From Candidatus Nanosyncoccus sp. (GTDB lineage: Bacteria; Patescibacteriota; Saccharimonadia; Saccharimonadales; Saccharimonadaceae): a stretch of DNA of 64,000 nt. The stretch spans positions 3,419 to 67,418 of the forward strand of contig JAZNKL010000006.1 of assembly GCA_045578525.1 (NCBI GenBank), read 5' to 3'. The position numbers and the translations under genes are program-made. Position 1 is the stretch's first letter. Each line of letters opens with the position of its first letter. Below the pieces are notes generated by a model. It was given only the letters and a program-made list of their open reading frames with translations, was not told the origin of the DNA and searched no databases. Shown one piece after another: positions 8,384 to 21,801 of this stretch.

Positions 8384-10282
8384 ATGACAAACAAGAGAAT
8401 CGGGGATATAAATATATTTAGGCAGCGAGCTAGGCACTTCAATACCGTTGGGCTTTTGGTGCTTAGCAGTATGATTGGGCTTCTTGCTCTTGGATTAGGA
8501 GTTTTTAGCAACTCCGTCTTTGCTGAATCGTCCGCTAATGGTTCAACCACCGCCACTTCCCGTGTTGCAGTTACCCTTAAAGAAATCATTGCTCTTCGTA
8601 TCCTAGACAAAACCGCTAGTTCAGAAATATCTAACCTAGTACTTGATATTACTCCTACCCCTAATGGTGTGTTTACTAAGGGGTCTTTTATTGCCGAGAC
8701 GTCTACCTCTAATGCTACCGGCTACAAATTATACCTTACTAGTATCGGAAAAGATCACCTTGATACTTATACCAATTCACTGATTAATATCGATAGTAGT
8801 GTTGAGCCTAGTGTCGGGACTATTCCGAGCTTGACATCTGGCGCTTCCGTGACGGAGGCGGCATTTAGAGTAAACAACTCCGCTTATAAGAATAAATGGG
8901 GGTATAGCACTAATGGGCTAATTGTAAATACTACTACTAATAATGGTGCTACTACTATTGATTCTATTGCTGACAATACCAATACTAGCGAGATTACTTA
9001 TGCTGATATTCCAGAGAACGCAGAAAGTAGGCAGATAGATAATAAGTCGGCAGCTATTGATAAAGGGATTACGCCTATTACAATCGGAGTCAATGCTTCC
9101 TCAGCAGTGACATCTGGGGTTTACAAGAACACTTTGGAGCTCACGGCGATTGCGAACCCACTTTCGGTAGATTATTCTCTCTCCTTTGACGGCAACTCTA
9201 CTGGCACGGTGACGGGACTTCCAACTACGATGGAAGCTTCTTCTGTAGCGTCTTCTTATACATTTACTATTCCAAGTAATGTGCCAACTACTTCTGGCTA
9301 TACGTTTAAGGAATGGAATACCACAGCTGATGGCTCTGGTGATAGCTATAGTCCTGGAGATGATTTTACCGTATCGGCTGATGATATTGCGGGGACAGAC
9401 CAGGTGCTTTATGCTATTTGGATGCCGGTGCCAGCGTTCTTTACCATTACCTACATGCAAGATATGACGTCAGAGATTTGTAATTCAGCCACCACTCCGG
9501 ATGTAACCGTATTGGGAGACGAGACCAGGGCGGATACTGACGGTTCCCACAATGGCGACACCAATTATGTTCCAGAGACCACTCTCATAGACTACCGTGG
9601 CATTAACGGTACTGGTACAGCTTCTAGCCCGGCTACTGGCACTAACCAAGTTTCCTACAAGGTGAGAAAGCTAGCTGATGGTAACTGCTGGATGACCCAG
9701 AACCTGAAGTTGACGCTCTCTACCTCCACTACGTTAGAAGTTGGTACCTTTACTGGTGGTACTACTTCTTGGACACCAAATAGTACTACTGAAGCATACG
9801 TATACAACTACGCTATCACGCCAAGTACTAAAGCCGACCTCAGCGTCAATACGGACATTGATGCTAAGAACGGTGGCAATGCCTGGTATTATCCATGGTA
9901 TGCAGCAACGGCAGGACAAGGCACTCAAACCACTAGCCCAAACATCACCCAATCTATCTGCCCTAAGGGCTGGAGGCTACCATTAGGAACTACGGCAGAT
10001 AAGTCATTCTATAACCTCTTCACCACTAAATACGGCCTAGAAAGCTCTGCTGCTGGCTCTACTTCCTTACAAAGCTTCCCACTAGACTTTACTCTGTCCG
10101 GATACGTGGATAACGGGTCGCAGCTCGGTGCGGGTTCATACGGCTACTACTGGTCAGCCAGTCCGGACACTAGCCGTCCTGGCAGCGCGTACAACTTGTA
10201 CTTCCGCTCTGACATCATTGCCTCTCAGAACTACTACAGCGCCAAGTACTACGGTCGCTCGGTGCGTTGCGTATCAGTCTAG
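8384..10282 (+). CDS. Surface adhesin: signal peptide, WxL-like subunit domain, InlB B-repeat (Flg_new), FISUMP/Fib_succ_major tip
   Basis: TSTSNATGYKLYL..KWGY..GVYKNTLELTA; GYTFKEWNTTADGSG..LYAIW; KLADGNCWMTQNL, CPKGWRLP, YYWS, GRSVRCV. Confidence 0.85.
   Translation: MTNKRIGDINIFRQRARHFNTVGLLVLSSMIGLLALGLGVFSNSVFAESSANGSTTATSRVAVTLKEIIALRILDKTASSEISNLVLDITPTPNGVFTKGSFIAETSTSNATGYKLYLTSIGKDHLDTYTNSLINIDSSVEPSVGTIPSLTSGASVTEAAFRVNNSAYKNKWGYSTNGLIVNTTTNNGATTIDSIADNTNTSEITYADIPENAESRQIDNKSAAIDKGITPITIGVNASSAVTSGVYKNTLELTAIANPLSVDYSLSFDGNSTGTVTGLPTTMEASSVASSYTFTIPSNVPTTSGYTFKEWNTTADGSGDSYSPGDDFTVSADDIAGTDQVLYAIWMPVPAFFTITYMQDMTSEICNSATTPDVTVLGDETRADTDGSHNGDTNYVPETTLIDYRGINGTGTASSPATGTNQVSYKVRKLADGNCWMTQNLKLTLSTSTTLEVGTFTGGTTSWTPNSTTEAYVYNYAITPSTKADLSVNTDIDAKNGGNAWYYPWYAATAGQGTQTTSPNITQSICPKGWRLPLGTTADKSFYNLFTTKYGLESSAAGSTSLQSFPLDFTLSGYVDNGSQLGAGSYGYYWSASPDTSRPGSAYNLYFRSDIIASQNYYSAKYYGRSVRCVSV
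10100..10282 (+). other. Candidate DGR variable region (VR)
   Basis: 104/183 nt GC; 30/60 sense codons end in C; all 10 Tyr are TAC and all 3 Asn are AAC; lies at the extreme C-terminus of a CLec-type domain. Confidence 0.55.
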
Positions 10283-10334
10283 TTCTCTCCGTGGTGTTTT
10301 CCCGTGTCCTCCCAAAAAAGGGAGAGAACATCAC
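10282..10334 (+). promoter_or_regulatory. Hairpin immediately after the adhesin stop (terminator and/or DGR cis-hairpin)
   Basis: GTTCTCTCC(10282-90)/GGAGAGAAC(10321-29); alternative arm GTGGTGTTTTC; inner CTCCC-AAAAAA-GGGAG. Confidence 0.5.
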
Positions 10335-10377
10335 GCTCACGCTTGAGTAGCCTATAATTATGTGCTACGGTGATAAC

Positions 10378-10782
10378 ATGAAGAAAAAATATACCGTAAT
10401 TACAGAGACTAGCGCAAATAATCCTCCGCAAGATTTTGAGATGCGAGCCGCAATAATTCTGGCAAATTACTTAAAGAAAGATTTAGTGTTCCAACGCTCT
10501 GGACATTGTCGTACTCCGGATCTGAGAGAAAAAGACTCCACGATAACCTGGGAATTAAAAAGCCCTACTGGTGATGGAAAGAAAACTATAGACAATAATT
10601 TGCGTTCTGCAAAAGGCCAATCAAAAAGAGTAGTGCTGGATCTATCTCGATGTAAAATGCACCAGCTTAGAGTAATTGGTCGTATAAAGCACTACGTAAA
10701 AGCGGGCAATCACCAAATCAAAAGATTGCTTATTATCACAAAATCTAAACGAGTCATTGACTTTTTAAAAGAAATAAAGTAA
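10378..10782 (+). CDS. Stand-alone CdiA C-terminal-like (PD-(D/E)XK fold) nuclease domain protein
   Basis: RTPDL..WELKSPTG..KTIDNNLRSAKGQSKRVVLDL. Confidence 0.6.
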   Translation: MKKKYTVITETSANNPPQDFEMRAAIILANYLKKDLVFQRSGHCRTPDLREKDSTITWELKSPTGDGKKTIDNNLRSAKGQSKRVVLDLSRCKMHQLRVIGRIKHYVKAGNHQIKRLLIITKSKRVIDFLKEIK

Positions 10783-10797
10783 TATAGAATCATAGAT

Positions 10798-10845
10798 AAG
10801 ATGCGTAAGATACTGTACTGAATCAAACGCATCTTTTCTTTTTTG
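10798..10845. terminator. Bidirectional hairpin/terminator between convergent genes (possible sRNA)
   Basis: AAGATGCGT..ACGCATCTT followed by TTCTTTTTT. Confidence 0.65.
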
Positions 10846-10847
10846 TC

Positions 10848-11303
10848 TTAGTACAACTTCGTCTTAATCAGCTTCAAATACTCGGTAGCGGCTTTGCAGA
10901 AATTTTCTAGCTCGCGACCTTTGATTTTGATATATTCGCCGCCTAGTGGCAACTTATAGACGCCGTTTTCACGGACTTCATAAGTAATAGTAGATTCAAA
11001 CTTCTTGCCGTCTTCTATCCAGCTTTCGTGATAAATCCAGACATTGTGCTTAAAGCGGAAGAATTCGCGGCGATGGCCTTTTGGAATCGGACCAAAAAGA
11101 GTTGCGCCAAGAGCAGATTCGGCATTGATTAAATCTGATTCAGTCAGTTTTAGTTTAGTGTTTTTCCCTGCACTAAAAAGCGACTTGATGATATTTTTGT
11201 AGTTTTTCTTGCTCTTTTCCTTCGGCTTTACGGCTGGTTTTTTGGCAGCCTTTTTTACTTTTGGTGTAGCTTTTCTTTTTAGCGCAAATGACTTTGGCGA
11301 CAT
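10848..11303 (-). CDS. Hypothetical protein with Lys-rich N-terminus
   Basis: AGGAGGT SD; 151-aa ORF. Confidence 0.75.
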   Translation of the reverse strand: MSPKSFALKRKATPKVKKAAKKPAVKPKEKSKKNYKNIIKSLFSAGKNTKLKLTESDLINAESALGATLFGPIPKGHRREFFRFKHNVWIYHESWIEDGKKFESTITYEVRENGVYKLPLGGEYIKIKGRELENFCKAATEYLKLIKTKLY

Positions 11304-11435
11304 CTTTCCACCTCCTCAGAAATTCTACTTAGCTCGTGATAAAGCTCAAGATCAGGAGAATCAAAAGCATAGGCCTCAGCTTTTTTGAAGCTTGGCATAC
11401 CAAAACGGGGTGCAAAATCTGGGTTCTCTACCCCT

Positions 11436-12359
11436 TTAATGTGTGAGTTTGAATAAATTTCTCGCATTTTCTGTGGTTCTCCCTTCGATTTCCGCTTCTG
11501 GAATGCCCAGAGTGTCGGAAATATAGGCGCAAATGTCTCTCACATGCGCCGGCTCATTTATTGTACCACGAAATGGCGCTGGTGTCAAGAAGGGGGCATC
11601 AGTTTCTAGGAGCATTCTCTCTAGTGGCGGGAGCGGAAGCTCTGGTTTTACAAAAGTTGCAAGACCATTTACACCGATAAAGAAGCCGAAATTTAGAGAT
11701 TTTTTGAGGTTTTCTGGACTATCGGAGAAGGAATGAACTACCCCTTTTACTTCTGGGAAATTCTTAACCACAGCGAAGAAATCATCAAAAGCATCACGGA
11801 CATGGAAAATCAGAGGCAAATTCTGGTCTTTTGCCAGCTGTAGCATCTCTTCAAAGAGCTTTATCTGGTTGTTTTTCCCTGCCACGCCTTCCCGTGGTGC
11901 ACCTTCACGGTAATCAAGGCCCACCTCGCCGATAGCAACTAAAGTGGGCGAGTCAAACATCTCTCTCGCGACACGCTCGGCTCGGCCCGTCGTTACGGGC
12001 GAGCCTTCGCTCCGCCCGCTCCCCGTTGGTCGCGGAGGGTCGCTATGAGAGATATCTTGACTCGCCCATCTGTCTGCCTCGTCGGGGTGGATGCCGTAAG
12101 ACCAAAAAACGCCGTCAGAAGCGTGAGAAGCTGCAAAATCGTGAGCAATTAAAGAATCTTCGTGCGAAGTGCCCACGCAAATCATCTGAGAGATACCAGC
12201 AGAGTGAGCACGCTCAATAATCTTTGACGGCTCAAAATCTGCCGGAAGATGCGGAACTTCTGGGTGTTTCTTTAAATATTTCTCGGAAAGTTGCTGGCGC
12301 GACAAAGCAAAATTATAAGTATCTCGATCGTGAATATGGCAGTGTGTATCAATTAACAC
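11436..12359 (-). CDS. tatD: TatD family DNase
   Basis: IDTHCH, GIHP, AIGEVGLDY, FHVRDA, HSF, LETDAPFL; GTG start overlapping the typA stop inferred. Confidence 0.9.
   Translation of the reverse strand: MLIDTHCHIHDRDTYNFALSRQQLSEKYLKKHPEVPHLPADFEPSKIIERAHSAGISQMICVGTSHEDSLIAHDFAASHASDGVFWSYGIHPDEADRWASQDISHSDPPRPTGSGRSEGSPVTTGRAERVAREMFDSPTLVAIGEVGLDYREGAPREGVAGKNNQIKLFEEMLQLAKDQNLPLIFHVRDAFDDFFAVVKNFPEVKGVVHSFSDSPENLKKSLNFGFFIGVNGLATFVKPELPLPPLERMLLETDAPFLTPAPFRGTINEPAHVRDICAYISDTLGIPEAEIEGRTTENARNLFKLTH
11946..12067. repeat. 122-bp palindromic MITE/RPE-like element in-frame within tatD
   Basis: Terminal IR GGGCGAGTCAA..ATCTCTC / GAGAGAT..TTGACTCGCCC; inner GGCTC-G-GCCCGT-CGTT-ACGGGC-GAGCC. 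Confidence 0.8.
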
Positions 12360-14166
12360 GACTTTCGCGTTTCCTTTTGATTGGATCAAGCAGACGTTTA
12401 CGAAGACGCAAAGATTTTGGCGTGACTTCTAGAAGCTCATCGTCTAAGAGAAAATCTAGGCACTGCTCAAGACTTAACTGTGTGTATGGAGTAAGCTGAA
12501 TAGCGCCGTCAGAAGCGTGAGTACGCATATTAGTAAGCTGCTTTTCCCGGCAAACATTAATGTCAATATCTTCTTTTTTATTAGAAAGGCCGACAATCAT
12601 ACCCTGGTAGACTGGCACCTGCGGCGGAATATAGAGCACGCCACGAGCCTGAGCGGCATCTAGGGCATAAGCAGTGGATACGCCAGTCTCAAAAGAGATC
12701 AAAGCACCGTTTCTCTCTGGGCGATATTTTGTTTCTACGGCGCGGTAGCCATAAGGAATAGAAGACATAATGACGGTGCCTTTGGTGGCGGTAAGAAGAT
12801 TATTACGAAGACCAATCAGGGCAGCAGTGGTGATTTCGTAAGTAAAGCGAGTTGAGCCAGAGCTGGTAAGTTCTTGATCGATTAGTTCGGCGTGACGAAC
12901 CCCCATTTCCTGAGAAACTGCGCCGACATATTCGGAATCTACTTCGATGGTTAAATTCTCTACCGGTTCCTCTAGCTTGCCGTCCACTTCTTTATAGACT
13001 ACTTCTGGACGACCTGCCTCAAGTTCGTAACCCTCGCGACGCATAGTTTCAATAAGGACAGAAAGATGCAGCTCGCCACGGCCAGAGACCTTATAGCCAA
13101 GGCCATCGGGTTTGATTTTAAGAGCGATATTAGTCTCCAATTCTCTCTCCAAACGCTCAGCAATTTGGCGAGAGGTGGTAAATTCACCTTCTTTGCCCTT
13201 TAGTGGGCTAGTATTTGGGCCAATGTAGATAGAAAGAGTTGGCGGCTCAAGCTCGATGGTAGGGAGAGCTTCTGGGTTGTCACCAGTGGCAATCGTATCG
13301 CCGATATTAGCGTCAGTGACACCAGTAATAGCCACAATGTCGCCAGCGACAGCTTCTTCAACTTCTTCCTTACCAAGACCGCGATAAGTATACAGACGGT
13401 CAATTTTTGCCGCAGTGCTACTTTCTGTACCGCGCAACAATTTAACTTGCTGGCCTTTTTTCAACTTGCCACGGAAAATTTTGCCGATAGCATATTTGCC
13501 AAGATAATTATCTGCTGCAAGCGCCGCGACCAGAAGCTGTGCGCCTTTACTTGCGTCTTCGTCAATGGAAGGCTCTGGAATATCATTAATAATTGCGTCA
13601 AAAATCACGTGCAGGTCATCGTCCAGCTCAGGAGTTTTGCCAGCACGACCATCTCTAGCAATAGCATAATATATCGGGTAATTCAGCTGCGATTCATCAG
13701 TAGCAAGCTCCAAGAACAAATCAGATATTTCGTCTTTGACTTCTTCAATTCTGGCAGCAGGTTTATCAATTTTGTTGATGATAACGACCGGCTTTAAATG
13801 CAGGCCAAGGGCTTTCTGTAATACGAACTTCGTTTGAGGCATCGGGCCTTCCTGAGCATCAACAATCAAGAGAACTCCGTCAGCCATATTGAGCGTTCTC
13901 TCAACTTCGCCAGAGAAATCAGCGTGACCCGGAGTGTCTATGATATTAATCTTGTAGCCGTCATAATAAACTGCGGTTTGCTTGGCGGTGATGGTGATAC
14001 CACGCTCGTGCTCTTGGTCCATTGAGTCCATGATCAGAGTCTGTGACATTTCTGCCTGATTGTCGCGAAAAGTATGGGACTGCTTCAAAAGCCCATCGAC
14101 TAGTGTGGTCTTCCCGTGGTCAACGTGGGCGATAATTGCGACATTTCTGATTTTAGACTTTTCCAT
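12349..14166 (-). CDS. typA: Translational GTPase TypA/BipA
   Basis: AHVDHGKTT, ERGITI, DTPGH, NKID, GRGELHL, EVTPKSLRLRK. Confidence 0.96.
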   Translation of the reverse strand: MEKSKIRNVAIIAHVDHGKTTLVDGLLKQSHTFRDNQAEMSQTLIMDSMDQEHERGITITAKQTAVYYDGYKINIIDTPGHADFSGEVERTLNMADGVLLIVDAQEGPMPQTKFVLQKALGLHLKPVVIINKIDKPAARIEEVKDEISDLFLELATDESQLNYPIYYAIARDGRAGKTPELDDDLHVIFDAIINDIPEPSIDEDASKGAQLLVAALAADNYLGKYAIGKIFRGKLKKGQQVKLLRGTESSTAAKIDRLYTYRGLGKEEVEEAVAGDIVAITGVTDANIGDTIATGDNPEALPTIELEPPTLSIYIGPNTSPLKGKEGEFTTSRQIAERLERELETNIALKIKPDGLGYKVSGRGELHLSVLIETMRREGYELEAGRPEVVYKEVDGKLEEPVENLTIEVDSEYVGAVSQEMGVRHAELIDQELTSSGSTRFTYEITTAALIGLRNNLLTATKGTVIMSSIPYGYRAVETKYRPERNGALISFETGVSTAYALDAAQARGVLYIPPQVPVYQGMIVGLSNKKEDIDINVCREKQLTNMRTHASDGAIQLTPYTQLSLEQCLDFLLDDELLEVTPKSLRLRKRLLDPIKRKRESRVN

Positions 14167-14229
14167 AAGAATTAATTATACACTTTTTAGAGGTAAAAGT
14201 AAAGCCCCTAGCATAGAGGGGCTTTTTGC

Positions 14230-14898
14230 TCACTTTCTGCGAGCAGGTCTTTTGGCGGGGGTGGAGAGCATCAGTCCGGCGAACGCTAGATCGTCGTTCG
14301 TGAAAACGCGTTGCGGTGACATATTCCAGTAGACATAGACATCTTCGTCAATCTTCAGACTATCGGCTACGTCAAGAAAGCTCGGTTTAACAGTGGCAGC
14401 AATCTCTGATAGTAGTATTTCGACCGCATTATCTTCGATGGTTCCAGCTATTCCAGACGAGGTTTCTGAAACCGCCGCATTTCCGCCGCTAATAAGCTGA
14501 CGACAAAGTAGAGAAACTGTTCCTCCGGGCTTTGTGGCCGAAATCGCGAAAGTGTTATGACGACTTCCTTTATAATCAAAATCGCTGAATTTTCCGACGG
14601 CAAATTCGACGCCTTTACCACTAAATTCACTAGGAATCTTCATTTCTGTCAACCGGTTGTAATACTCTAAAAAATCATCAAGCGGATGAAAGAAGCTTTC
14701 GAATTCTGCCGGGATTGCATTACTGACGTTATTTGTGACGTAGTCTATCGGAATAAAAACATTGAGACTTTTGGGATAAATCGCACTAAACTCATTAGCG
14801 AAAAAGCCATTTGAACCTAAAGCCGTGATTTTCATATCTATTCCTGCCGGAAAAACCTGACGTGCAAGACTCTCTGCCCCCAAAGCAAACTTAGTCAT
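14230..14898 (-). CDS. Hypothetical protein
   Basis: AGGAGGTGA SD; own promoter and terminator. Confidence 0.75.
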   Translation of the reverse strand: MTKFALGAESLARQVFPAGIDMKITALGSNGFFANEFSAIYPKSLNVFIPIDYVTNNVSNAIPAEFESFFHPLDDFLEYYNRLTEMKIPSEFSGKGVEFAVGKFSDFDYKGSRHNTFAISATKPGGTVSLLCRQLISGGNAAVSETSSGIAGTIEDNAVEILLSEIAATVKPSFLDVADSLKIDEDVYVYWNMSPQRVFTNDDLAFAGLMLSTPAKRPARRK

Positions 14899-14988
14899 AT
14901 CCTCACCTCCTAATGTACAATGTTCTTATATTGTACCATAAAAAACCTCTAATTAAAGAGGCTTTTTATGATTGCGTTTAACTTTTTG

Positions 14989-15603
14989 CTATTTTTTCTT
15001 TGAAGTGGTTTTTGCTTCTGGAATTTCTTTAAGGCTTTTCGTCATATCTTTAAAGGTGTCAGAAACATCTTTAATATTGTTCTTAATGGTGGCCATTTGG
15101 ATGATATTAGAAATACCATAAATAATCATCATGATACCCGCAAAGAGCATAATAGAAATCTGTCCGCCCCATGGGTTGAAAATTAGAAGCATGCCACAAA
15201 TAAAAGCAAGTACTGCAACGACAATAGAAAGCGAGCCAGCGCCAGTACCTTTCAAAGTAGTGGCAAAGCGCAATGATGAAAGGGCATTAATAATAAACCA
15301 AGCGCCGATAATGATTGGGAAAATATTCATCACGTCTGGATAGATTGCAAAGACTAATGCAATGATTATTAGGATAGCGCCCATCGCAGTGGTGCCGAAA
15401 AATGGCGAGAGGCGCTTCTTGCTGAAATCAGCGGCGACTAAGTAGACACCGGCGATCATACTAAGTGCAGCGATAGACCAACGAATGACATCGAGTGACG
15501 TCTCCGGGAAAAATATAAATAAAATTCCTAGTGCCGTGAACGCCGCAGAGATACCAATTGAAGCGTTGATAAAACTGTTAAATTTTTTCTTTAGTCCATT
15601 CAT
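14989..15603 (-). CDS. HdeD/DUF308-like membrane protein
   Basis: Six TM segments with repeated GILFIFFP / GMLLIFNP pattern. Confidence 0.7.
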   Translation of the reverse strand: MNGLKKKFNSFINASIGISAAFTALGILFIFFPETSLDVIRWSIAALSMIAGVYLVAADFSKKRLSPFFGTTAMGAILIIIALVFAIYPDVMNIFPIIIGAWFIINALSSLRFATTLKGTGAGSLSIVVAVLAFICGMLLIFNPWGGQISIMLFAGIMMIIYGISNIIQMATIKNNIKDVSDTFKDMTKSLKEIPEAKTTSKKK

Positions 15604-15617
15604 TTTGACTCCTTTAA

Positions 15618-16340
15618 TTATTTATTGCAGGTCGTTTCACAATCTGCGCTTTTTATTAGTTGTATAAAACTGCCTAAGCGGGCTTTCAAATCTTGCACAC
15701 GACCCTCAGTCCAATACTCGGCTGGATCTTTAGCTCCAGCAGTATATTTCGAGGTTTCATAATCGTTCCCGACAATCTGACCATCGCTTACAAAAACTAC
15801 ATCGGGGACGTAGATACGGTAATGACCCTCATCGTCATATTGAAGATGATCACCTAGAATCTCAACAAACTTCTGATAGTCTGCATTGTTCTCCTCTCGA
15901 TCTTTTCTGATGTTGTAATAGTAAATTTTCTCAATACCGTTATCTTTTGCAACCTCATTCAAATATTTAGCGTAAGCTTGGCACCAAGGGCATTCTGGGA
16001 AGCCTAAGAAAACAATTCCGGTCCCGTGCTCTAGGATATTGATAGTGTCTTTAGCATCTTTATAGACGAAGACGTTTTCCGTATCAACGTCTGTGTATTC
16101 TGTCGCAAAACGCTCAGCGTCGGTTTTAATGCCATACTCGTAAGCATTTTTTGTACGGATCGTGGAGAAGATAGTAATAAATGCCACAGCGACTATTGCC
16201 GCTACGCCCAAAATAATGATAGTAATAAGACATGCTACCCTGTTTGGACTACTCATCTTCTTGTTGTATTTATAGGACCTAGGGCTTCTCCTCGCAGGAG
16301 ATTTCCTAGTGGTTTTTCTAGATTTGCTCTTTGTACTCAT
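15618..16340 (-). CDS. Membrane-anchored thioredoxin-fold protein
   Basis: Basic N-terminus, one TM, GFPECPWC motif. Confidence 0.75.
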   Translation of the reverse strand: MSTKSKSRKTTRKSPARRSPRSYKYNKKMSSPNRVACLITIIILGVAAIVAVAFITIFSTIRTKNAYEYGIKTDAERFATEYTDVDTENVFVYKDAKDTINILEHGTGIVFLGFPECPWCQAYAKYLNEVAKDNGIEKIYYYNIRKDREENNADYQKFVEILGDHLQYDDEGHYRIYVPDVVFVSDGQIVGNDYETSKYTAGAKDPAEYWTEGRVQDLKARLGSFIQLIKSADCETTCNK

Positions 16341-16431
16341 AGTTTAATTATAGCATAACCGTAAATTATGTGGCAAATATAGTCTTTATTTTTTAAGAAA
16401 TAAGTGCTATAATAATATCACCACTTTTTGT

Positions 16432-16508
16432 GGGCCGGTAGCTCAGCTGGTTAGAGCACGGGCCTTTTAAGCCCGGTGTCGAGGGTTCGAGCCCCTCCCG
16501 GCTCACCA
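16432..16508 (+). tRNA. tRNA-Lys(TTT)
   Basis: Cloverleaf; CGGGC-CT-TTT-AA-GCCCG; TTCGA; CCA. Confidence 0.97.
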
Positions 16509-16530
16509 TTTACGTGGCCTTAACTTTTAT

Positions 16531-16607
16531 GGGCGGTTAGCTCAGTTGGCTAGAGCGCGTCTTTGACGTAGACGAGGTCAGAGGTTCGACTCCTCTATCG
16601 CCCACCA
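16531..16607 (+). tRNA. tRNA-Val(GAC)
   Basis: CGTCT-TT-GAC-GT-AGACG; CCA. Confidence 0.97.
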
Positions 16608-16722
16608 GTTATATAATAAAATTGCCACCTGTCAAGGTGGATTTTTGATATACAGACGTCTTGCTATGATAACGGTCGAGTCTGACTCTGACCTATTTTT
16701 TGGCCTACCCTTATCATCACAA

Positions 16723-16755
16723 AAAGTGAGCGCACTCGCAGTTTGCGCTCACTTT
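16723..16755. terminator. Intrinsic terminator of the surface-protein cluster
   Basis: AAAGTGAGCGCA..TGCGCTCACTTT 12-bp stem. Confidence 0.8.
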
Positions 16756-16800
16756 ATAAGAATAGCCAAAAACAAATCAATCAATAATTTAAGGGGTGGA

Positions 16801-17736
16801 TTACTTTCTCTTGTTGGTTCGTTTGATTACGAATAGCGCAAGAACACTGATAGCCGTAAATCCGATTAACCCCGTGATTAGAAAATCACTCTTTGAAATG
16901 TTGAGACTGCTAAGCAAAGCACCTGTGTCTGGAACATTTGGTGCATCTGGTGTGACTGGCACGTTCGGACTTTCTGGTACGTAGTTGAACCAGACCGTAA
17001 CTGAACCAACAGCTCCGCCGGCACGGTCATAAGTATCGTAGGCTGTAACTTTAACGGTGTATTTCCCTTTTGCTAGGTCCAAGCCACTTAAGTCGATCGG
17101 TACGATATCGGAGCCACCGGTTTCTGGATTTTTAACAACATATCCTGGAAAATCGCCAACCACCTTTCCATCTTGATCGTAGATAGTTAAGTCAAGTATC
17201 TTAACTGTTGCGGCATAGTTAATGGTGACTTTCGTGGTATCTTCATCGACAGTCAGTTCATCATCTGGAGTATCAATGGAGACAAAATTGAATTTGACAT
17301 AGTCTTCGCTTGTTCTTCCGTCCGATGAGGTGATTACGGATGTGAATTTGTAAGCACCCCAACCACCGTAGTTGTTAAGATCAAGTGTAAATTGGGTTAC
17401 TCCACTGTCTGGATCACCACTGTCCACATCGACATCATATTCGCTAAGCGAATAAACCGTCTCCGTACCATCCTCGTTATAATAAGTCAGGTAGTAATTG
17501 ACCTTACTTGCTTTACTGTGCGTCTCTTTAAAATTGACTACACTTTTGGTATATCTATCTCCGTCTAGCGGTTTGTCAATCTTGGTTTCGAAGTTGGTGT
17601 TGTAGACTTGGACTATAACATCAACATCACCACCAGCAGAAGTTGCGCTAGTTGGGAGATTATAGGCAACGGCAGTAATACCCGCGACAAGGGCAAGACC
17701 ACCAAAACCTAGTAGCTGCTTTTTTTGTATATGCAT
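16801..17736 (-). CDS. Cell-surface protein with LPxTG-like sorting signal (VPDTG, TM, basic tail); CscD-like
   Basis: Signal peptide, beta-rich body, PNVPDTG..TM..KRTNKRK. Confidence 0.75.
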   Translation of the reverse strand: MHIQKKQLLGFGGLALVAGITAVAYNLPTSATSAGGDVDVIVQVYNTNFETKIDKPLDGDRYTKSVVNFKETHSKASKVNYYLTYYNEDGTETVYSLSEYDVDVDSGDPDSGVTQFTLDLNNYGGWGAYKFTSVITSSDGRTSEDYVKFNFVSIDTPDDELTVDEDTTKVTINYAATVKILDLTIYDQDGKVVGDFPGYVVKNPETGGSDIVPIDLSGLDLAKGKYTVKVTAYDTYDRAGGAVGSVTVWFNYVPESPNVPVTPDAPNVPDTGALLSSLNISKSDFLITGLIGFTAISVLALFVIKRTNKRK

Positions 17737-17833
17737 ACTCTACACTCTCTTTTATTATTTTGTTTTTGTTTTGGCTAACGCTTTCGAGCTCTACCCTCGC
17801 ATGGTAGTTTCGACAGGGGTGAGAAGTCTCTCG

Positions 17834-18802
17834 CTAGACTTTCAGTCTGCCTTTGCGCTCTTTGCGCTTCCTACTTAGCATTATAATCCAAATGATGAGA
17901 ATTGTCAAGAGGATAAGCATAATAATAATCATCCAGATAGGTAAAATTACGACTAGCTTGGTTTCTTCTCTAACTACATCACCTGCAGAACTAGACACAT
18001 TATAGGTGACCCAGAAAAGTCCCATCGGAGAAGTATTATTCCATTCGCTGTTCATGCGACGCTCTGTGTCTGGGAGAATATTGTAAGCCTGCTCTTCTTC
18101 ATGAAGCGTGTTGCCGAAGATAGATTTGACAGTAAACTTGTATTTAGCCTCGATGTCTGTATTACCTTTATTTTTAACCTTGGATGTGGCAGTGATTGGA
18201 CCTTTATTGAGGAAGCCGGAAATTGCATAATCTGTGATTTCTGCGTCCTCATTGGTCTCGCCGTTCGTACGACCATAGACGATAAGGCCGATACGAGAGA
18301 CAGTGGTAATACCGCTAGCGTCTTTTTTGTCATCACTGTCAGTCTGAGCAAAAATGGTAGCATATTGACCGCCGGCAGGGACATCTTCTGGAACACTGAT
18401 ACGGTAGTTTACAGTCTGTTTTGCACCTGGTTCAAGGGTGCTTTTGAAAGTATCAGTAGTGCTGCCGTCTTCATTGATGAATTTAATCCAGCGAGAAAGT
18501 TGCGTACGATTAGTTTCATTGCTAAAGGAAACATTATAATCTTCGTCTACGACAGAGTATGGCGCAGTATAAACGCTGTATCCGAATTTATCGGTACCAA
18601 TATTAGCTACTGTCATAGAGTAATCCAGTGATTGCCCTGGGCGAAGCACCACCCTAGATGATACAGGGGTCACCTGAATCCAAGATGATGAGCTATCAGA
18701 AGAAGTAGTAGTGAGCTCTTCTGCAAAAACATTAGTCACTGGAGCGATTGCGCCGGTAATGGCAAGCGCTAGTGCTACTAATCCATATTTTAACGATTTC
18801 AT
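17834..18802 (-). CDS. DUF916/WxL-interacting-like surface protein with C-terminal TM anchor (CscA-like)
   Basis: IQVTP..LRPGQ..TVANIG; AGGQYA; KNKGN; C-terminal TM plus RKRK. Confidence 0.7.
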   Translation of the reverse strand: MKSLKYGLVALALAITGAIAPVTNVFAEELTTTSSDSSSSWIQVTPVSSRVVLRPGQSLDYSMTVANIGTDKFGYSVYTAPYSVVDEDYNVSFSNETNRTQLSRWIKFINEDGSTTDTFKSTLEPGAKQTVNYRISVPEDVPAGGQYATIFAQTDSDDKKDASGITTVSRIGLIVYGRTNGETNEDAEITDYAISGFLNKGPITATSKVKNKGNTDIEAKYKFTVKSIFGNTLHEEEQAYNILPDTERRMNSEWNNTSPMGLFWVTYNVSSSAGDVVREETKLVVILPIWMIIIMLILLTILIIWIIMLSRKRKERKGRLKV

Positions 18803-18828
18803 TAGTATTATCTCCTTTCCTTAAAAAG

Positions 18829-19791
18829 TTATTTTTCTCGTTTTCCTTTGCTTTCCCCACGCGCCTCACGCATCTCACGTTTGCGATCTCTTGAACGAGA
18901 TACTAGCCAGAAGATGATGAAGAATAGGAGAGCGAAGATGATAAATAGTAGCCAGAGTGGACAAATCAGAACGAGTTTTCCGACCTTGGAGGTTTCTCCT
19001 GCAAAGTCAATGGTTTGTTCCACATAGAAGACGCCAAGGCTTGGCGCACCATCCCAGGTAATGGAATTAAAGCGGCTGGTTTCTGGAATGATATCTAGGG
19101 TTAATGGGTTATCTGCATTAGAAAAGGCGGTTTCTTTTTGGAAAAGTGGCCAGATATTGGTTGTATAGGTAGCGGTCTGTTCAATATTACCCGTGTTCTT
19201 AACTAAAGACGAGACGGTAATTGGCGGATCGAAATAAAAACCGTTAACAGTGTTTTTAACGATTTCGCCAGATGCACGAGTCTCACCTGGAACTGCAGCG
19301 TAAAGGATCATACCAACGCGATGAACAACGCGAACTGTAGCATTGTCAGCGTTACCGCTATCTGTCTGAGCCATAAGTGCGGCGTACTGACCGCCAGCAG
19401 GTACATCAGTCGGAACTTTTACATAATAAGTGACATTAGCAGTCTCACCTGGGCCAAGATGACCACTCTTTTTGTCGAAGGTAATCCATTCGGCAATTTG
19501 AGTGTAATTATTCTTGGTGTCATAATTTCCTTCGTAGTTTTCTCCGGTAACAGTATAAGGCGTGGCTTCTACTGTATAATCAAAATCTCCTACGCCAATA
19601 TTCATAACCTTGAAGGTTCCGGTATAGTTAGAACCTGGGGTGAGGGAGATCTTTTGTTTCGTTGGAGACACTTGGATGCGGGTAACACCTTCGTCCTCTG
19701 CAAAAACTGGTGCGGAATTTAGAACGCTATACCCACCAATGGTTAGTGCTGCAAGCAAAACAGCAAGAAAATATTTTATTTTTTTAGCCAT
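18829..19791 (-). CDS. DUF916/WxL-interacting-like surface protein (paralogue)
   Basis: IQVSP..LTPGS..KVMNIG; VPTDVPAGGQYA; KNTGN; C-terminal TM. Confidence 0.7.
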   Translation of the reverse strand: MAKKIKYFLAVLLAALTIGGYSVLNSAPVFAEDEGVTRIQVSPTKQKISLTPGSNYTGTFKVMNIGVGDFDYTVEATPYTVTGENYEGNYDTKNNYTQIAEWITFDKKSGHLGPGETANVTYYVKVPTDVPAGGQYAALMAQTDSGNADNATVRVVHRVGMILYAAVPGETRASGEIVKNTVNGFYFDPPITVSSLVKNTGNIEQTATYTTNIWPLFQKETAFSNADNPLTLDIIPETSRFNSITWDGAPSLGVFYVEQTIDFAGETSKVGKLVLICPLWLLFIIFALLFFIIFWLVSRSRDRKREMREARGESKGKREK

Positions 19792-19889
19792 TAACCTCCT
19801 TGTTATGGGTTTAATTATACATGAGTGAGATAAGTTTTACAAGCCTTGAATATAAATAAAAGTCGTGTTAAAATATGTTTAGTCCTTTT

Positions 19890-19977
19890 GCGCCCGTGGT
19901 GGAATTGGTAGACACGCTACCTTGAGGTGGTAGTGGCGATTTAAGCTGTGCTAGTTCGAGTCTAGTCGGGCGCACCA
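19890..19977 (+). tRNA. tRNA-Leu(GAG)
   Basis: CTACC-TT-GAG-GT-GGTAG; long variable arm; CCA. Confidence 0.96.
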
Positions 19978-19992
19978 TTGACAAAAGCTCAA

Positions 19993-20018
19993 AAAAGACC
20001 CCCAAGTGGGGGTCTTTT
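19993..20018. terminator. Bidirectional terminator
   Basis: AAAAGACCCC..GGGGTCTTTT. Confidence 0.85.
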
Positions 20019-20034
20019 TACTGTATAAAACTGA

Positions 20035-20796
20035 TTAGTTAGCAGTTGTAGCAGTGTAGGTAAGGGTAGCCTGGTATTGACCAGTTGGCTGAGCTTTGCC
20101 AGTTGCTACGCCATACTCAACGATAGAAGTATCTTGAGTGTAGCCAGTGCGCTGGGCAGGAGCAACCTTCACGGTGTAACCAGCAGTCGTTACTGGGTTC
20201 CAGTTAGTGATGGTGCTGTCCATAGTGCTACCAGCATAAGCAGCAGCAGGTTGGATGCCCCAAGCAGCAGTACCAGCAGTCAAAGTGCCAGCAGCAGCGA
20301 TGGATGGGATAGTATCACCAGCAGCGTTGGTTAGATCAACGTCAGCAGCAGTTTTAGCGGCGACAGCTAGGCTGTAACCACCAGCATCGTTGGTAGTAAC
20401 CTTAAGAGTGGAGAAGAATCCACCGTTTGGTGCAGTTGTTGCATCATAAGCAGTAGCTGCATCACCTTCGACTACAGAATACTGGGTCATCGTGACTGCA
20501 GAAGATGAGGTCTTGATATTAGTCTCAGTTAAATCGTTACCGCTACCGTCAACAAGACCGGTGTTATTAGGAGTGATATCGACAACGGAGCCGAAGGTTT
20601 CGCCAGAAACACGGCTTGGGATGTGATTATCATCGTTGTTACCTGCGATTTCAAGAGCGATTGCTGGATCAACTTTGACAATAACTTCTGCATCGCCAGT
20701 TGCGCTTTGGGTAGCGAATGATGCCATTGGAAGAGCAGCAACGCCAAGACCTGCAACTACGCCGAGCGCAGCAATAACTTTAGTAGATTTGGACAT
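20035..20796 (-). CDS. Small secreted WxL-like (YxL variant) subunit, probable major subunit
   Basis: VTTNDAGGYSLAV, AWG, YGVATG..GQYQATLTYTAT; strongly GCT/ACT-biased codons. Confidence 0.7.
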   Translation of the reverse strand: MSKSTKVIAALGVVAGLGVAALPMASFATQSATGDAEVIVKVDPAIALEIAGNNDDNHIPSRVSGETFGSVVDITPNNTGLVDGSGNDLTETNIKTSSSAVTMTQYSVVEGDAATAYDATTAPNGGFFSTLKVTTNDAGGYSLAVAAKTAADVDLTNAAGDTIPSIAAAGTLTAGTAAWGIQPAAAYAGSTMDSTITNWNPVTTAGYTVKVAPAQRTGYTQDTSIVEYGVATGKAQPTGQYQATLTYTATTAN

Positions 20797-20856
20797 ATTA
20801 AAACTCCTTTCTATATTTGTTTTACTTTTTTGTTTTATATGACCTTTGTGTCTCCT

Positions 20857-20899
20857 AGTATACTAAAAGCTTGTGGTTATGTCAATAGTTTTTTTGAAC
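20857..20899 (-). promoter_or_regulatory. Promoter of subunit gene 1 (duplicated)
   Basis: AAAAAAACTATTGACATAA; TTGACA-17-TATACT. Confidence 0.75.
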
Positions 20900-21031
20900 A
20901 TTATTTGATAAAATATGCAAGTTTTCCACAGGGGTTAGATAAGAAAAAACCGCATCTTAAAAATCATGCGGCTTTTCATGTCTATATTATAATAGTTGCA
21001 CTATATTATATATGTGTCGGAAGCGATTACG

Positions 21032-21709
21032 CTATTTTGCTGTGGCGGTATATATTACCGTATCCGTATAGGTGCCGACCGGCTGGCTAGGAGTGGCGGC
21101 TACACCGTAGTGAACAGTACTTTGATGGTCGTTAGTGATGGTTGGAGTAGCTGGAGTGTAGTTTGTCACAGTGATTGGAGTACCAGCGACGATTGTTGGA
21201 TCAGTAGCAGAAACGTTGTTTGGAATCGCCTGCCAGACATTTGTATCACCGATAGATACTGCCCAACCAGTGTTAGAGGACGATGGAATATTGCTTGTAG
21301 CAACAATGGTATCGCCAGCGGCAGACACAAGGCTGGTAACTTCATCAGCATCGATAAGTTTCAAGGTGTACCCAGCGACTGAGTTGGTACTAACGAAAAT
21401 ATCGGAATACATCGTGGTGTTATCCACCTGGCTTGGCAAAATAGTGGTTTCGGCTTTTTGGGTACCAGTAGTAGTACAGACGGAAGTGCCATCATTATAG
21501 GTATTGCACTCAGTAGTGCCATTCAAAGTAGCTCCAGTATATGATTTAATTGTCATACTGATAACGCTATTAACAAGTAAATTGACTGTGAGGTCTTCTG
21601 TTGCCTGTGCATAATCTCCTGGGTCTGCATAAGCCGCCATTGGTAGCAAAGAAATGCCTACCCCAGCTACAATCCCGAGACCAGCGACAATCTTTTTTAT
21701 TTTGGACAT
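21032..21709 (-). CDS. Small secreted WxL-like (YxL variant) subunit, paralogue
   Basis: VSTNSVAGYTLKL, GWAV, YGVAAT..GTYTDTVIYTAT; N-terminus near-identical in style to 20035-20796. Confidence 0.7.
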   Translation of the reverse strand: MSKIKKIVAGLGIVAGVGISLLPMAAYADPGDYAQATEDLTVNLLVNSVISMTIKSYTGATLNGTTECNTYNDGTSVCTTTGTQKAETTILPSQVDNTTMYSDIFVSTNSVAGYTLKLIDADEVTSLVSAAGDTIVATSNIPSSSNTGWAVSIGDTNVWQAIPNNVSATDPTIVAGTPITVTNYTPATPTITNDHQSTVHYGVAATPSQPVGTYTDTVIYTATAK

Positions 21710-21759
21710 TATATATCCCTTTCGGTGTTTATATTATAATATATGACTTTTCTGAGGTT

Positions 21760-21801
21760 AGTATAACTCATTAAAGTGCTTATGTCAATAGTTTTTTTGG
21801 A
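21760..21801 (-). promoter_or_regulatory. Promoter of subunit gene 2 (duplicated)
   Basis: AAAAAAACTATTGACATAA; TTGACA-17-TATACT. Confidence 0.75.

Follow-up and report, generated by a model that had tools for sequence, protein, structure and literature searches.

A variable repeat of retroelement type at the tip of a Saccharibacteria adhesin gene, probably orphaned from its template

Introduction

Was the tip of this adhesin gene written by a diversity-generating retroelement (DGR), and if so, is it still being rewritten? The question arises from a stretch of 64,000 nucleotides (hereafter the window; C6:3419-67418) of a 745-kb genome, which is assembled in nine contigs, 99.5% complete by markers and placed in Saccharibacteria by its named homologues. 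The original prediction, made from the letters of the DNA, described the last codons of a fibre-adhesin gene as a DGR variable repeat (VR) and the gene as a remote target, with no reverse transcriptase (RT) or template repeat (TR) nearby. Positions given without a contig are those of the window.

The adhesin gene and its neighbourhood

According to its open reading frame and translation, the gene (8384..10282, + strand) encodes a fibre adhesin of 632 aa, secreted or anchored, which begins with a hydrophobic signal or transmembrane segment followed by a beta-rich N-domain. Using Pfam, a Flg_new (Listeria-Bacteroides) repeat (PF09479) was found at residues 264-333 and a Fib_succ_major (FISUMP) domain (PF09603) at the C-terminus, residues 433-630, the latter scoring 37.4 bits against a cut-off of 33.9. 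TIGR02145 of NCBIfam reached 37.3 bits on the same protein, which is under its own cut-off of 41.65. The putative VR sits inside this C-terminal Fib_succ_major/DUF1566-type domain.

The AF2 model of the whole adhesin has a pLDDT of 81.8, and the ten-residue blocks of its C-terminal part have mean values mostly between 74 and 96, with a single dip to 54 at residues 491-500. Searching PDB with this model by Foldseek gave weak, pilin-like matches to the N-domain only. A PDB profile search returned no match, and the C-terminal domain modelled alone gave an unusable model (pLDDT 35).

The gene is surrounded by peptidase M1, alaS, mnmA and an aminotransferase gene on one side and by tatD and bipA on the other. 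Directly downstream lies a CdiA_C-like ORF of 140 aa (10360..10782, + strand; Pfam PF18451, E = 1.3e-15), which is 65% identical to the CdiA_C-like ORF that follows the orphan target of a related locus, L043. This ORF is no DGR component; it marks the same module as the L043 locus.

Composition of the gene tip

The jump in GC content that had been claimed for the tip is exact: 104 of 183 bases in 10100-10282 are G or C (57%), against 45% GC in the preceding 571 codons of the gene. Codons ending in C account for 31 of the last 61 sense codons and for 133 of the 571 upstream (Fisher p = 1.1e-5), which bears out the statement that half of the tip codons end in C. As had also been noted, tyrosine is written in the tip as TAC in all cases (10 TAC, 0 TAT), compared with 10 TAC and 14 TAT upstream (p = 0.0017). 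The asparagine count was likewise correct (3 AAC, 0 AAT; 17 and 24 upstream), and alone it is not significant (p = 0.086). The described YWS...SVRCV scaffold is present in the tip.

Codon-position bias among orthologues

Three close relatives of the adhesin were found by protein search, namely P0002 (88%), P0003 (84%) and P0005 (55%). The genes of P0002 and P0003 are syntenic with the window gene, and the flanks of the syntenic orthologue loci (L038 and L037) are about 94-97% identical to the window. Between the window and L038, differences at codon positions 1, 2 and 3 number 18, 19 and 12 in the last 61 codons, versus 16, 9 and 45 in the preceding 141 codons (Fisher p = 3e-5), and across the orthologue comparisons the p-value of this bias ranges from 3e-5 to 6e-4. 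The dN/dS of the same pair is 0.95 in the last 61 codons versus 0.12 in the codons before; across comparisons it is 0.45-1.9 in the VR versus 0.05-0.2 upstream.

The four orthologues were aligned by codon together with the type A TR, VR1 and VR2, the repeats of a DGR resident in the present genome. In each column of the four orthologues the third base (C or T) is kept while positions 1 and 2 are scrambled. For example, after an invariant AGC the first two rows read CGT CCT GGC AGC and TAT GAT GAC GAC, and the third and fourth AAT GCT AAC TTC and AAT GCT AGC AAC. The scaffold blocks between the variable codons, such as CTACTGGTCAGCCAGTCCG, are invariant among the orthologues, including L043. 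The L043 protein is only 55% identical overall and is encoded at a different locus from the window gene, but its VR scaffold is near-identical, and the synonymous distance to L043 is 0.16-0.25 in the VR versus 0.5 to more than 3 in the rest of the gene. A pattern of this kind results when a shared template overwrites its target again and again, which would explain both the low synonymous distance in the VR and the invariance of the scaffold.

The same near-identity on a divergent protein could also be read as a tip with no DGR history, either a recombined cassette from a GC-richer source or the outcome of ordinary diversifying selection on a lectin tip. Adhesin genes of this kind are indeed mosaic; P0004 has the C-terminal half in common with P0002, under a different N-terminus. 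However, selection alone does not keep C versus T at the third base of each column while randomising positions 1 and 2. From the orthologue columns, the implied template was written down before any template had been found.

A type B template in a sister strain

P0009, which was also returned by the profile search described below, has a tip of the same kind as the window adhesin. Its contig (L056; GCA_017460145.1) carries, in this order, the target gene, a 288-aa accessory gene, a 377-aa RT and an inverted TR on the opposite strand, which we call a type B cassette. This TR (TR56) is almost exactly the template deduced from the orthologue columns; its block translates as FTLSGNVNSGSQNNAGSNGNYWSASPNTSNANNAYNLNFNSSSINPQNNNNKNNGRSVRCVSI, and the ORF over it has a weak Lcl_C (DUF1566) match. 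TR56 and the adjacent VR (VR56) differ by 19 mismatches, all A>N, and are homologous up to 34 nt beyond the stop codon.

Against TR56, the window stretch 10088..10316 (+ strand), which comprises the VR and 34 nt beyond the stop, is 79.9% identical across 226-229 nt, and the TR/VR homology in L056 has the same limits. Within it, 10103..10252 (+ strand) forms the mutated core, delimited by the changes from TR56 and by the variation among orthologues, in which NNC/NNT codons stand between invariant scaffold blocks; the dN/dS given for this core is 0.95-1.9. When the VRs are scored against TR56, its own target VR56 has 19-20 A-to-N changes, 0 non-A changes and no indel; the window VR has 27 A-to-N, about 16 non-A and a 3-nt indel; the L038 VR 29, about 10 and 3 nt; and the L043 VR 27, about 11 and 9 nt. 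In the first 126 nt of the window VR only about 6 mismatches are non-A, and 5 non-A changes fall in the 3' homology/hairpin region, which includes the 34 nt of post-stop homology. TR56 has 4 codons in the Asn run and the orthologues 5 or 7; therefore the last template of the orthologues would have been an allele of TR56 and not TR56 itself. Judged from these alignments, part of the non-A mismatch of the window VR appears to reflect a different TR allele rather than decay.

Where the orthologues have variable columns, TR56 has AAC/AAT codons, and TR56 is a real TR that lies beside an RT and departs from its own VR at adenines only. Both the TR56/VR56 pairing as template and target and the match of variable columns to TR adenines were tested, and the coincidence holds. 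Taken with the kept third bases, this makes a tip free of any DGR history very improbable in our view, and a GC-richer donor cassette is not needed to explain the tip composition. The central claim of the original prediction, a DGR-type VR, is borne out by the variation at positions 1 and 2 in orthologues, by homology to two VRs of the same genome and by a TR of the same scaffold beside an RT in a conspecific strain. Judged by sequence comparison, a DGR origin of 10088-10316 is well supported, as a putative VR of the known CLec2/Fib_succ_major class.

The prediction had also counted a hairpin after the stop codon as a sign of homing. There is a weak inverted repeat at 10282..10329 (+ strand), identified by folding the window, L037, L038 and VR1 and from the TR56/VR56 alignment, with a 9-bp stem (10282-10290 with 10321-10329), a loop of 30 nt and -8.8 kcal/mol. 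Its z-score is -1.66 and 17 of 200 shuffled sequences fold equally well, so it does not exceed chance and was rejected as evidence of homing. A different GC hairpin further upstream, CGGGG-N5-CCCCG, is conserved in TR56, VR56, L037 and L038, and the window copy is eroded by G>T and C>T changes. GC-rich inverted repeats follow the VR in only 34% of DGRs (PMC5758913).

Downstream of the L056 cassette are ftsK, rpsF, ssb, rpsR, efp and ftsJ. The ftsK region is 96.8-97.7% identical at the DNA level to contig C1 of the present genome and the FtsK proteins are 100% identical; this makes the two genomes conspecific. In the present genome, contig C1 runs without a break through the ftsK locus, where PNPase, a 579-aa gene and ftsK follow one another with neither RT nor TR. 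The 579-aa product resembles these adhesins in its N-half and has a different domain as its C-half. In L043 the ftsK locus is found in a third state: between a FISUMP target with a type B VR and ftsK there is a 78-aa CdiA_C-like gene, which occupies the place of accessory gene, RT and TR, and no cassette is present.

Search for the cognate template

According to the original prediction, blastn of the VR against the full genome should reveal a copy beside an RT that differs at adenines only. No second copy of the VR region was found in the assembly by blastn, and none of that kind by any other search. In an ungapped, adenine-tolerant scan of both strands of all 9 contigs, in which any mismatch was allowed where the genome has A, the best placement had 54 non-A mismatches in 183 nt (19-20 in about 100 nt). 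As a positive control, VR1 led the same scan to the type A TR, with 2 non-A and 17 A mismatches. Asn-codon-rich frames across the whole genome yielded the type A TR only. Using TR56 as query, blastn at word size 7 returned from the assembly just the window VR itself and the type A TR, and the whole L056 cassette, searched by word-7 blastn and tblastn, matched only the window VR and type A elements, with no cognate TR, RT or accessory gene; there are no Ns in the assembly.

Outside this genome, the 19-nt scaffold core was searched as a DNA pattern with up to 2 mismatches and was absent from 200 other species genomes of the genus; the core had no matches in GTDB species genomes either. Two JGI metagenome matches to it were dismissed as chance, lying in unrelated high-GC genes. 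A search for short TR-encoded ORFs with the C-terminal 65 aa (10085-10279) gave no candidates. The profile search covered 1.84 billion representatives and returned many FISUMP tips, the cognate TR not among them; one Asn-rich TR-like ORF (P0378) belongs to another DGR.

Two further candidates were set aside. A 290-aa ORF in L044 has the length of the accessory gene and is unrelated to it. The gene at the end of C5, considered as the missing type B target, has an N-part 88.5% identical to the L056 target and a FISUMP domain of a third type.

The resident type A DGR

The window itself has neither RT nor TR, as predicted, whereas the genome does contain one DGR-type RT, on contig C7. This is the single RT of the genome (C7:1437-2555; PF00078, E = 6.7e-14). 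It has the motifs IGNLSSQ and YVDD, and among PDB structures the RT of the Bordetella phage DGR (8ub7, E = 2.9e-23) matches it best. Near it are the 3' end of a FISUMP gene (C7:1-542), a 290-aa gene without family match in Pfam, NCBIfam or PHROG, and, downstream of the RT on the opposite strand, the type A TR, an Asn-codon-rich block at C7 ~2579-2815. This TR differs from VR1 (C7 355-545) by 17 A and 2 non-A mismatches and from VR2, which lies at the end of contig C6 about 8 kb past the window, by 22 A and 5 non-A mismatches. In ten loci with a near-identical type A RT, only type A TRs were found. In an active relative of the type A DGR, the TR is identical over 198 of 198 positions in ten loci, and from nearly every sample to the next the VR beside it shows changes at adenine sites.

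Could this resident DGR diversify the window VR directly? The VR families are homologous, the window stretch matching both type A VRs of the same genome, and in the alignment its variable codons stand opposite the Asn codons of the type A TR. However, the type A TR is only 75.6% identical to the window stretch over only 119 nt (blastn), and pairwise alignment gives about 53 non-adenine mismatches against 30 at adenines, with two codon indels, while the true VRs of this TR carry only 2 and 5 non-A changes. Moreover, the two share no 3' end, the homology of the kind needed to start homing. Being different in type, with codon indels and so short a match, the type A TR therefore cannot template the window VR, and direct action of the C7 element has virtually no chance of being the right explanation.

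A variant in which the window VR is diversified in trans, by a hidden stand-alone type B TR served by the resident type A RT and accessory protein, is improbable. The type A and type B RTs are 57% identical and their accessory proteins 33%. If such service did occur, a single retroelement would be working with two template families unrelated to each other, and a full-length adhesin gene at a distant chromosome site would lie within its reach.

The claim of a remote DGR target can thus be kept in part. The VR is of DGR type; that it is a target of a DGR in this genome is not supported, as the resident TR is of another type, neither a cognate TR nor a second RT is present in the assembly, and the ftsK locus is contiguous without a cassette.

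Present state of the variable repeat

In our preferred reading, the window VR is probably an orphan, the frozen product of past diversification. An RT would have copied TR RNA and misread adenines, and the resulting cDNA would have replaced the VR (mutagenic retrohoming), which would give NNC/NNT codons on a fixed scaffold at the adhesin tip. The template would have been of the type B kind, still carried by a conspecific strain upstream of ftsK. In the present genome the type B cassette would be absent and the resident type A DGR would serve two other VRs, and the window VR would now change by ordinary mutation and recombination. We infer that the absence of a cognate TR and RT is real and not an assembly loss, and the window VR is probably static at present.

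Assembly gaps bear on this point. Contigs break within FISUMP paralogues (the starts of C2 and C9 and the ends of C5 and C7), and it is common for a DGR cassette to end up as an unbinned contig of about 2 kb with the VR/TR repeat at its borders (for example, L063); therefore a type B TR could exist in the organism and yet be missing from the bin. The window gene might then be an active remote target, its VR still rewritten from a type B TR (a sequence such as AACGGCAACTACTGGTCAGCCAGTCCGAAC) that was left unassembled or unbinned, with or without its RT. Such breaks and cassette contigs are what this reading expects, a conspecific strain does have the type B cassette, the non-A mismatches to TR56 are few in the first 126 nt of the VR, and remote targets are documented for cellular DGRs (PMC5758913). 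On the other hand, the cassette site of the sister strain is contiguous and empty in the present genome, a genome of such marker completeness has one RT, and the assembly passes cleanly through the VR of the adhesin gene, midway along a 76-kb contig. The 5 non-A changes in the 3' homology/hairpin region and the static orthologous VR of a sister lineage also speak against it. Current rewriting of this kind is a real possibility and, on balance, an unlikely one.

The sister-lineage evidence comes from three samples of one study at 1.4-2x coverage, in which the orthologous VR is unchanged; their last 1200 nt show 0-1 differences, even though the N-terminal half is a different one in one of these samples. 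The active relative of the type A DGR behaves otherwise, its VR changing from sample to sample. The window VR itself has a small excess of non-adenine changes and the eroded downstream hairpin. The static sister-lineage VR and the eroded window hairpin favour a window VR that is static and slowly decaying.

If the orphan reading is right, the mark of a DGR persists after the element itself has gone, Saccharibacteria strains that are close relatives carry different DGR cassettes, and a target gene can retain a frozen variable tip once its template is gone. A VR-like signature alone would then be no proof of current hypermutation, and surveys that call targets only from TR-VR pairs on the same contig would miss genes with orphan tips. 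The loci form a natural series, in which the cassette is present (L056), replaced by a CdiA_C-like gene (L043), or represented by an orphan tip at a second locus (the window). This series may serve the question of whether DGR loss fixes a useful binding specificity in an episymbiont adhesin.

As a separate observation, the gene that ends in the presumed orphan VR of the window is intact and full-length, and a template of the type of this VR was seen only in a sister strain, the resident DGR being another one.

Comparison with known DGR systems

Fib_succ_major/DUF1566 tips are an established class of DGR targets, CLec2, with LdtA of Legionella pneumophila as prototype (PMC5758913, PMC4159848). 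CLec2 targets, with DUF1566, DUF823 or Fib_succ_major motifs, make up 'category d' of Wu et al. 2018, 14% of DGRs (PMC5758913). As in this class, the VR of the window lies C-terminally in a Fib_succ_major domain of a surface protein, its NNC codons derive from AAC, the ...YWS...SVRCV scaffold is invariant, and homology to a TR continues beyond the stop. Unlike the class, the genome assembly of the window is without a cognate TR. The homologous Saccharibacteria cassettes also depart from it, in that their TR is inverted and downstream of the RT, and that the place of a recognisable Avd is taken by an accessory gene of about 290 aa, for which Pfam, NCBIfam and PHROG gave no match.

The second comparison is with remote or non-adjacent targets, which are known from Treponema denticola and from 45 of 372 DGRs (PMC5758913). 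By definition, a remote target departs from some TR of its own genome at A positions only (PMC5758913), and the window VR is unlike such targets in that the assembly contains no TR of that kind for it. What it has in common with them is its setting: the target gene stands away from any RT, in a housekeeping neighbourhood of mnmA, tatD and bipA.

Resident type A DGR and the contig breaks

Outside the window, this genome contains a complete DGR of type A (G000:C7:1-2815, locus L005), which consists of the 3' end of a target gene with VR1, an accessory gene, an RT and a TR. The accessory protein is 290 aa in length, with no match in Pfam, NCBIfam or PHROG, and the RT is 372 aa. The TR is located downstream of the RT on the opposite strand, convergent with it, and this inverted layout is also seen in loci L046-L055 and in the type B cassette of the conspecific strain (L056). 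The type A TR also has a second VR, ~8 kb past the window end, in a "beheaded" ORF of 242 aa (G000:C6:75099-75827 = L060:8100-8828) that contains FISUMP alone and lacks both the signal peptide and the N-domains. Another beheaded copy of this kind is found at the start of contig C9, where it runs off the contig.

The assembly breaks inside FISUMP paralogues, which have identical segments in common, at the starts of C2 and C9, the end of C5 and both ends of C7. Judged by the syntenic gene order of L046 (lepA, adk, target, accessory, RT), the VR1 gene is the start of C2 (reverse complement) joined to the start of C7. The genes at the ends of C5 and C7 are identical in their last ~59 aa, and the C-termini of both are unassembled. 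The way in which DGR cassettes get lost from bins is shown by L063 (Logan SRR12529347, 2079 bp), which contains the accessory gene and RT only, and both of whose ends are the last 30 nt of VR/TR homology.

Type B locus and module exchange

At the position of the type B DGR in the conspecific strain, our genome carries a 579-aa gene, P0386 (G000:C1:53433-55172 = L058:6434-8173). Its N-half is the same adhesin N-half, joined to an unrelated Cys-containing C-terminal domain which is not FISUMP, and this is a module swap.

Adhesin genes are also mosaic between L064 and L038 (ENA ERZ25021417 and ERZ25021400): only 1 difference exists across the last ~1200 nt, whereas the genes diverge strongly over their N-terminal 700 nt, a pattern that indicates recombination within the gene. 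Identity to P0001 is 72% for P0004 and 88% for P0002.

Small CdiA_C-like ORFs (PF18451) lie downstream of two separate orphan type B targets, at window 10360-10782 and at L043:11311-11547, and are 65% identical to one another. In the syntenic orthologous loci L037 and L038, a PemK-like toxin gene takes the place of the window's ORF.

Comparison with pilin and fibre subunits

In the AF2 model of the window adhesin, Foldseek weakly matched the N-domain (8384-9160; residues 68-260) to subunits of pili or fibres, namely CfaB, CS20 and TasA (E ~1e-3). These pilin-like matches fit the fibre system proposed at window 8384-21801.
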